DNA from: Escherichia coli
GTDB taxonomy: Bacteria > Pseudomonadota > Gammaproteobacteria > Enterobacterales > Enterobacteriaceae
Assembly (NCBI RefSeq): GCF_009931435.1
Contig: NZ_CP043414.1
Strand: one strand, 5' to 3'
Length of the DNA: 64,000 nucleotides
Shown here: positions 31,639 to 32,065 of the stretch, in pieces
Layout: each line of letters opens with the position of its first letter
Numbering within the stretch: position 1 is the first letter of the stretch
Position numbers and translations under genes: made by a program
The notes under the pieces: generated by a model
What the model was told of the DNA's origin: nothing
What the model saw: the letters and a program-made list of their open reading frames with translations, nothing else
The model's database searches: none

Positions 31639-31731
31639 AAAAAAAACCGGATGCGAGGCATCCGGTTGAAATAGGGGTAAACAGACATTCAGAAATGAAT
31701 GACGGTAATAAATAAAGTTAATGATGATAGC
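31639..31731 (-). ncRNA. micF: micF antisense sRNA, divergent from ompC
   Basis: Minus strand reads gctatcatcattaactttatttattaccgtcattcatttctgaatgtc..., ending in the hairpin ccggatgcctcgcatccgg plus a T8 run. Confidence 0.85.
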
Positions 31732-31884
31732 GGGAGATATTCTAGTTGCGAGTGAAGGTTTTGTTTTGACATTCAGTGCTGTCAAATACTTAAGAATAAG
31801 TTATTGATTTTAACCTTGAATTATTATTGCTTGATGTTAGGTGCTTATTTCGCCATTCCGCAATAATCTTAAAAAGTTCCCTTG

Positions 31885-31980
31885 TATTTACATTCTGAAA
31901 CATCTATAGCGATAAATGAAACATCTTAAAAGTTTTAGTATCATATTCGTGTTGGATTATTCTGCATTTTTGGGGAGAAT
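31885..31980 (+). promoter_or_regulatory. ompC promoter region with OmpR binding boxes and a GAGAAT -10
   Basis: Repeated TTTACAT / GAAACAT OmpR-type half-sites; gagaat at 31975-31980, about 85 nt before the ompC ATG. Confidence 0.6.
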
Positions 31981-32065
31981 GGACTTGCCGACTGATTAAT
32001 GAGGGTTAATCAGTATGCAGTGGCATAAAAAAGCAAATAAAGGCATATAACAGAGGGTTAATAAC

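Follow-up and report, generated by a model that had tools for sequence, protein, structure and literature searches.

The micF–ompC divergent control region of an Escherichia coli genome: canonical layout, majority micF terminator allele and a natural variant of OmpR box C1

The 738-bp intergenic region between rcsD and ompC in the 64-kb window, which is the whole stretch of Escherichia coli DNA analysed (64,000 nucleotides), is almost certainly the standard E. coli micF–ompC divergent control region, a reading to which a probability of about 96% is assigned. Both micF and the ompC promoter lie inside it. The first-pass annotation, which called the arrangement canonical, was right in this: the layout is the well-known one of K-12, and its spacing is conserved across Enterobacteriaceae. 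Nothing that was observed speaks against this assignment. On the left the region is bordered by rcsD (28655..31327, minus strand), an 890-aa open reading frame named through the annotation of strain R32_14_1F and of K-12, and on the right by ompC (32066..33169, plus strand), a 367-aa open reading frame annotated as "porin OmpC" in R32_14_1F; position 32065 is the base immediately 5' of the ompC ATG. The spacer had been described as AT-rich, and indeed its GC content is 31-37% over 31400-32000 vs about 52% in the flanking genes. The distance from the micF +1 to the ompC ATG is 335 bp in the window and is kept at 322-342 bp in the 98 Enterobacteriaceae loci that yielded an ompC-like start codon. 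Two minus-strand open reading frames with TTG starts, 31344..31583 and 31558..31785, were rejected as spurious; neither K-12 nor R32_14_1F carries an annotation for them.

Compared with the micF (b4439)–ompC (b2215) interval of K-12 MG1655 (NC_000913.3, 2312750-2313487), the 738 bp are 98.8% identical without indels, and the two strains share the same genes, order and orientation; no difference falls in the MicF seed, in OmpR boxes C2 and C3, in the ompC core promoter or in the leader. Nine SNPs separate the two sequences. Five of them (31508, 31512, 31516, 31532 and 31553) fall in the micF–rcsD spacer, and the others lie in the MicF terminator stem (31650), 6 nt upstream of the micF +1 (31737), 2 bp upstream of box C1 (31885) and at position 9 of C1 (31895). 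The intergenic region of R32_14_1F (NZ_CP074749.1, isolated from a goat in Nebraska) is 100% identical to the window, and the same flanking genes, rcsB, rcsD, ompC, apbE and ada, are annotated around it. In this RefSeq record (3001-3738 of the compared segment) no micF feature is present despite a perfect MicF sequence; in K-12, micF is annotated.

At the scale of the species, 5376 of the 5426 complete E. coli genomes match the 738-bp region at 95% identity or more, so that the pattern is not due to chance, and in 5366 genomes the match covers at least 80% of its length. About 60 of the 5426 genomes have no match over at least 80% of the region; in NZ_CP148453.1 (H30), for instance, 17% is covered, with ompC annotated under that match. 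These poorly covered genomes suggest that the locus has been rearranged, or has received insertions, in a small fraction of strains.

On the ompC side, the OmpR half-sites reported by the first reading were found at 31887..31946 (plus strand), in three contiguous 20-bp boxes that end 5 bp 5' of the -35 hexamer. Boxes C2 (TAGCGATAAA TGAAACATCT, 31907..31926) and C3 (TAAAAGTTTT AGTATCATAT, 31927..31946), whose presumed boundaries follow the literature, are identical to K-12. Read directly, the half-sites follow one another as TTTACATTCT and GAAACATCTA in C1, a C2 that ends in ATGAAACATCT, and TAAAAGTTTTAGTATCATAT in C3. Over the three boxes a single base differs from K-12, a T to C change at position 9 of C1 (TTTACATTCT GAAACATCTA, 31887..31906), the box contained in the K-12 duplex that is reported to hold two OmpR half-sites (PMC2586830). 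The corresponding duplex of the window, TCCCTTGTATTTACATTCTGAAACATCTATAGCGAT, has 2 differences out of 36 bases from the K-12 one; the second is the C to T change at 31885.

The earlier statement that the OmpR boxes are intact holds for C2 and C3 in full and for the critical bases of C1, but C1 as a whole is not identical to K-12. In the 20-bp box, the bases critical for binding of OmpR, according to work on ompF F1, are A4, C5, A14 and C15, together with a G11NNNC15 motif (PMC1489923). C1 of the window (TTTACATTCTGAAACATCTA) keeps A4, C5, G11, A14 and C15, and these columns are 90-100% conserved. A cross-genus footprint was built from 114 distinct sequences of Enterobacteriaceae genera, in which the box cores are near-invariant: ACA and GAAACA in C1, TGAAACA in C2 (95-100% conserved) and GTATCATAT in C3 (89-100%). 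A further block, TTAAAAAGTTCC at 31870-31881, is also near-invariant in these approximately 114 sequences; it adjoins C1 upstream, outside C1-C3, and resembles the first half of C3 (TAAAAGTTTT).

The OmpR motif scan that had been proposed as a check was carried out by consensus scoring: all 17-mers of the 64-kb window, from either strand (about 128,000 positions), were scored against the published OmpR repeat consensus, GTTACATTTTGTTACAT (PMC5438342). C1 matches it at 13 of 17 positions, the joint best score in the window, and the K-12 C1 at 14 of 17. Only one other site reaches 13/17, TTTAAATGTTGTTACTT (37976-37992, plus strand); the DNA around it is AT-rich, and a 548-aa open reading frame (38061..39707) that occupies the place of mqo follows 85 bp downstream. 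In the OmpR ChIP-exo paper, mqo does not appear among the targets named in the main text, and this second match is probably due to chance. Two Rfam naRNA4 (REP/BIME-type) matches follow downstream of the same 548-aa frame, at 39748-39943, and another one occurs at 27902-27978, between the converging rcsC and rcsB open reading frames. Farther along the window, a tRNA-Pro (GGG) gene (56881-56957, minus strand) and an L25 ribosomal-protein leader (60675-60700, minus strand) are consistent with the neighbourhoods of proL and rplY in K-12, respectively.

For the C1 variant, a different reading of the region has to be weighed. The layout could be canonical and its function altered, if the T to C change at 31895, together with C to T at 31885, lowered the affinity of OmpR-P for the highest-affinity ompC box; the osmolarity threshold for ompC, and perhaps for the OmpR-dependent induction of micF, would then be raised in this lineage. 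Such an alteration is judged unlikely, at roughly one chance in eight. Of the 114 Enterobacteriaceae sequences, 97 have T at position 9, 12 have A, 4 have C and one has G, which puts T or A there in 109 of them, so the C of the window is unusual across genera and breaks a tract made of A and T only. Moreover, the haplotype that combines C at 31895 with T at 31885 is rare (61 genomes by exact match over 60 bp), and the match to the OmpR repeat falls from 14 to 13 of 17. However, position 9 is not among the bases reported as critical for OmpR (PMC1489923), and the variant C1 is still a joint top-scoring OmpR site in the window. The C allele also persists in the species: the 60-mer over C1-C3 that carries it is found exactly in 443 of 5192 complete E. 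coli genomes (about 8.5%), on at least two haplotype backgrounds, and its carriers include the type strain ATCC 11775, NU14 and APEC strains, with APEC O2-211 and IMT5155 among the genomes that have it. By comparison, the K-12 haplotype is present in 2836 of 5254 genomes. In addition, C at this position has arisen independently in three other species. A literature search on the variant C1 sequence found no paper; one candidate source of promoter mutagenesis, PMC4723039, was rejected, being a study of sensor-protein mutagenesis.

Judged from these comparisons, the T to C change in C1 is a natural and tolerated variant of a position that is not critical, most likely with little or no effect, and at most with a slight shift of the OmpR-P threshold. 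A small quantitative effect on the affinity for OmpR-P is itself improbable, and the same low expectation applies to the allele as a quantitative cis-regulatory variant shifting the OmpR-P threshold for ompC and possibly for micF. If this were true, the C1 allele, whose carriers include ExPEC and APEC strains and the type strain, would tune the porin balance between lineages. The preferred reading remains that of a standard control region with a naturally variable C1.

Downstream of the boxes, the putative ompC core promoter was read from the sequence as a -35 hexamer TTGGAT, a 17-bp spacer and a -10 hexamer GAGAAT (31952..31980, plus strand). It is identical to K-12 and conserved across genera, and it scores below the threshold of the sigma-70 scan. 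Indeed, this generic scan found neither the ompC nor the micF promoter and reported two chance hits, as expected because these promoters are activator-dependent. The ompC 5' leader (31985..32065, plus strand, with an approximate start) is highly conserved across genera and contains the Shine-Dalgarno sequence GAGGG at 32054..32058. The whole stretch 31896..32065 is identical in the window, in K-12 and in three other E. coli haplotypes. MicC, another small RNA, is reported to target the ompC leader (PMC5745476). OmpC itself is full length (367 aa) and 95% identical to the K-12 protein, with 18 alignment positions that differ, among them a 4-residue deletion after residue 180 and a compensating 4-residue insertion at 304-307, so that the length stays at 367 aa.

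On the opposite strand, upstream of micF, a putative -10 hexamer TAGAAT was read at 31739..31744, i.e. from -13 to -8, and it is conserved across species. The A/T polymorphism at 31737 (micF -6) lies outside this hexamer, in a column that is variable across genera. Between -33 and -51 from the micF start, a site at 31764..31782 (minus strand) matches with one mismatch AYNGCACNNWNNRYYAAAY, which we take to be the consensus of the mar/sox/rob box. By count, the matches to this consensus are not significant (2 found in the window vs 1.4 expected); the site itself falls within a strongly conserved block. Farther into the spacer, an exact match to WATCAANNNNTTR at 31797..31809 (minus strand) resembles an IHF consensus and may be a candidate IHF site; four such matches in the window vs 2.4 expected are weak evidence, and the position is moderately conserved. 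As read from the sequence, the mar-box and IHF matches can serve as position-consistent leads only.

The micF gene itself was recognised by a covariance-model scan of the whole window, which placed Rfam family RF00033 at 31639..31732 on the minus strand with 116.8 bits (E = 9.5e-18; gathering threshold 79 bits) and over the full length of the model (positions 1-94 of 94). The alignment with Rfam suggested by the first-pass annotation therefore gives a complete match, and its description of a 93-nt minus-strand micF ending in a terminator hairpin and a T8 run is borne out in each element. Aligned with K-12 b4439, the 93-nt gene occupies 31639..31731 and shows one difference, at nt 82. The predicted fold of the 93-nt RNA has a free energy of -21.4 kcal/mol (z = -5.4), a value that none of 200 shuffled sequences equals, and both consensus helices of RF00033 are present. 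One of them largely coincides with the internal hairpin of the minimum free energy fold (nt 31-46, 31686..31701, minus strand). At its top, cmscan flags a non-standard U37-C40 pair; K-12 has the same pair.

The 5' targeting region of MicF (nt 1-33, 31699..31731, minus strand) is identical to K-12. When these 33 nt were paired with the K-12 ompF mRNA from -17 to +11, a duplex of 25 pairs was predicted, with -27.1 kcal/mol and z = -4.7, equalled by 1 of 1000 dinucleotide shuffles; it spans the Shine-Dalgarno sequence and the AUG of K-12 ompF. The target used was that of K-12; the ompF of the strain lies outside the window. The seed-only test was used in place of one with full-length MicF, for which RNAduplex against the 160-nt ompF leader predicted a diffuse duplex that did not stand out from shuffled sequences (z = -1.5).

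The structure of MicF is also supported by comparison across the family. Loci were collected by a genome-wide pattern scan, and 25 diverse Enterobacteriaceae MicF sequences were aligned. In the two helices, 98.3% of the cells are paired (99.3% in the internal hairpin) and 7 pairs show changes on both sides; these covariation values were reached by none of 500 shuffles and collapse when the partners are slid by 1-3 columns. The conservation of nt 1-28 across species is partly forced by the search pattern, in which only positions 14, 15 and 18 were free; these three are invariant in the 25 sequences. Outside the pattern, nt 30-35 are invariant and nt 29 is G in at least 90% of the sequences.

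The intrinsic terminator of MicF (31639..31667, minus strand) is formed by a stem at nt 65-87 followed by the U tail. A consensus scan reported one terminator-like site, at 31667..31645 with a 10-bp stem, of which 6 pairs are G-C, a 3-nt loop and then a T run; the T8 run of micF corresponds to 31639..31646, i.e. A8 on the plus strand. Six of the ten stem pairs show compensatory changes across genera. The search for substitutions disrupting the seed or the terminator found none in the seed, and the sole change in the terminator strengthens the stem: at nt 82 (window position 31650) the window has C and K-12 has U, so that the G70.U82 wobble of K-12 becomes a G70-C82 pair and the stem is stronger than that of K-12. 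The predicted energy of the hairpin is accordingly -15.8 kcal/mol in the window vs -12.9 kcal/mol in K-12. The exact 93-mer of the window is shared by 3231 of 5374 E. coli genomes (about 60%), which makes it the majority allele, K-12 MG1655 carrying a minority one; the base of the window at this polymorphic position is also the one of the RF00033 consensus. Across genera, the pair 70/82 is GC in 12, AU in 10 and GU in 3 of the 25 sequences. From this distribution, nt 82 is a covarying position, at which K-12 has the wobble intermediate. The idea that this micF is a decayed, non-functional pseudo-sRNA kept only by its position has no observation in its favour and is practically excluded (about one chance in a hundred) by the full-length Rfam match, the K-12-identical seed, a terminator that is intact and stronger than that of K-12, the majority status of the allele, and the conservation of the -10 hexamer and of the mar-box block.

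Taken as the standard control region, the locus would work as follows. Phosphorylated OmpR would bind C1-C2-C3 (31887..31946), just 5' of a weak -35/-10 promoter, and would activate rightward transcription of ompC at high osmolarity. A separate promoter at a distance of about 250 bp would drive leftward transcription of micF. EnvZ-OmpR would activate it, as would SoxS and MarA, for which the mar-box-like site at 31764..31782 is the probable point of action; negative effects on the AT-rich spacer would come from Lrp and H-NS. Through its unstructured 5' end (nt 1-33), MicF would base-pair with the ompF mRNA over the ribosome-binding site and the start codon and block its translation, so that OmpF would fall as OmpC rises. 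The ompC-proximal OmpR sites are also reported to serve micF (Takayanagi et al. 1991, cited as reference 12 in PMC5175337).

In this scheme, the assignment of proteins to sites and the logic of the regulation are those of published work. There, MicF is 93 nt long, is encoded divergently from ompC and pairs with the ompF mRNA at its ribosome-binding site and AUG; its activators are EnvZ-OmpR at high osmolarity, SoxS and MarA, and H-NS binds the micF–ompC intergenic region (PMC5745476). Repression of OmpF by MicF in vivo, dependent on Hfq, is known for K-12 (PMC5745476, PMC12152304). Lrp represses both ompC and micF according to Ferrario 1995, as cited in PMC12152304, and MicF in turn represses lrp (PMC12152304, PMC5175337). 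The present analysis itself showed what micF is, that it is intact and conserved, and how it is structured and terminated; it also showed that the seed is complementary to K-12 ompF, that the OmpR boxes, core promoter and leader are present and conserved, and that the ompC open reading frame is intact. A pair alike in layout is micC–ompN, where a porin gene is also accompanied by a divergent sRNA that represses another porin (PMC5745476); it differs in locus, sRNA and target, and is absent from the window.

The conclusion of the first-pass annotation that the arrangement indicates an intact osmoregulated porin switch is beyond the reach of the window, because ompF and envZ–ompR are encoded outside these 64 kb. 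What the region does indicate is that micF and the regulatory region of ompC are both normal in this genome, a result mainly of value for annotation quality; micF was left unannotated by RefSeq/PGAP in the one non-K-12 record inspected. For the population, it places the K-12 reference among the carriers of a minority micF terminator allele. Finally, natural E. coli genomes vary in C1, a box usually cited as if its sequence were constant, and the variable position holds A or T in most other members of the Enterobacteriaceae.
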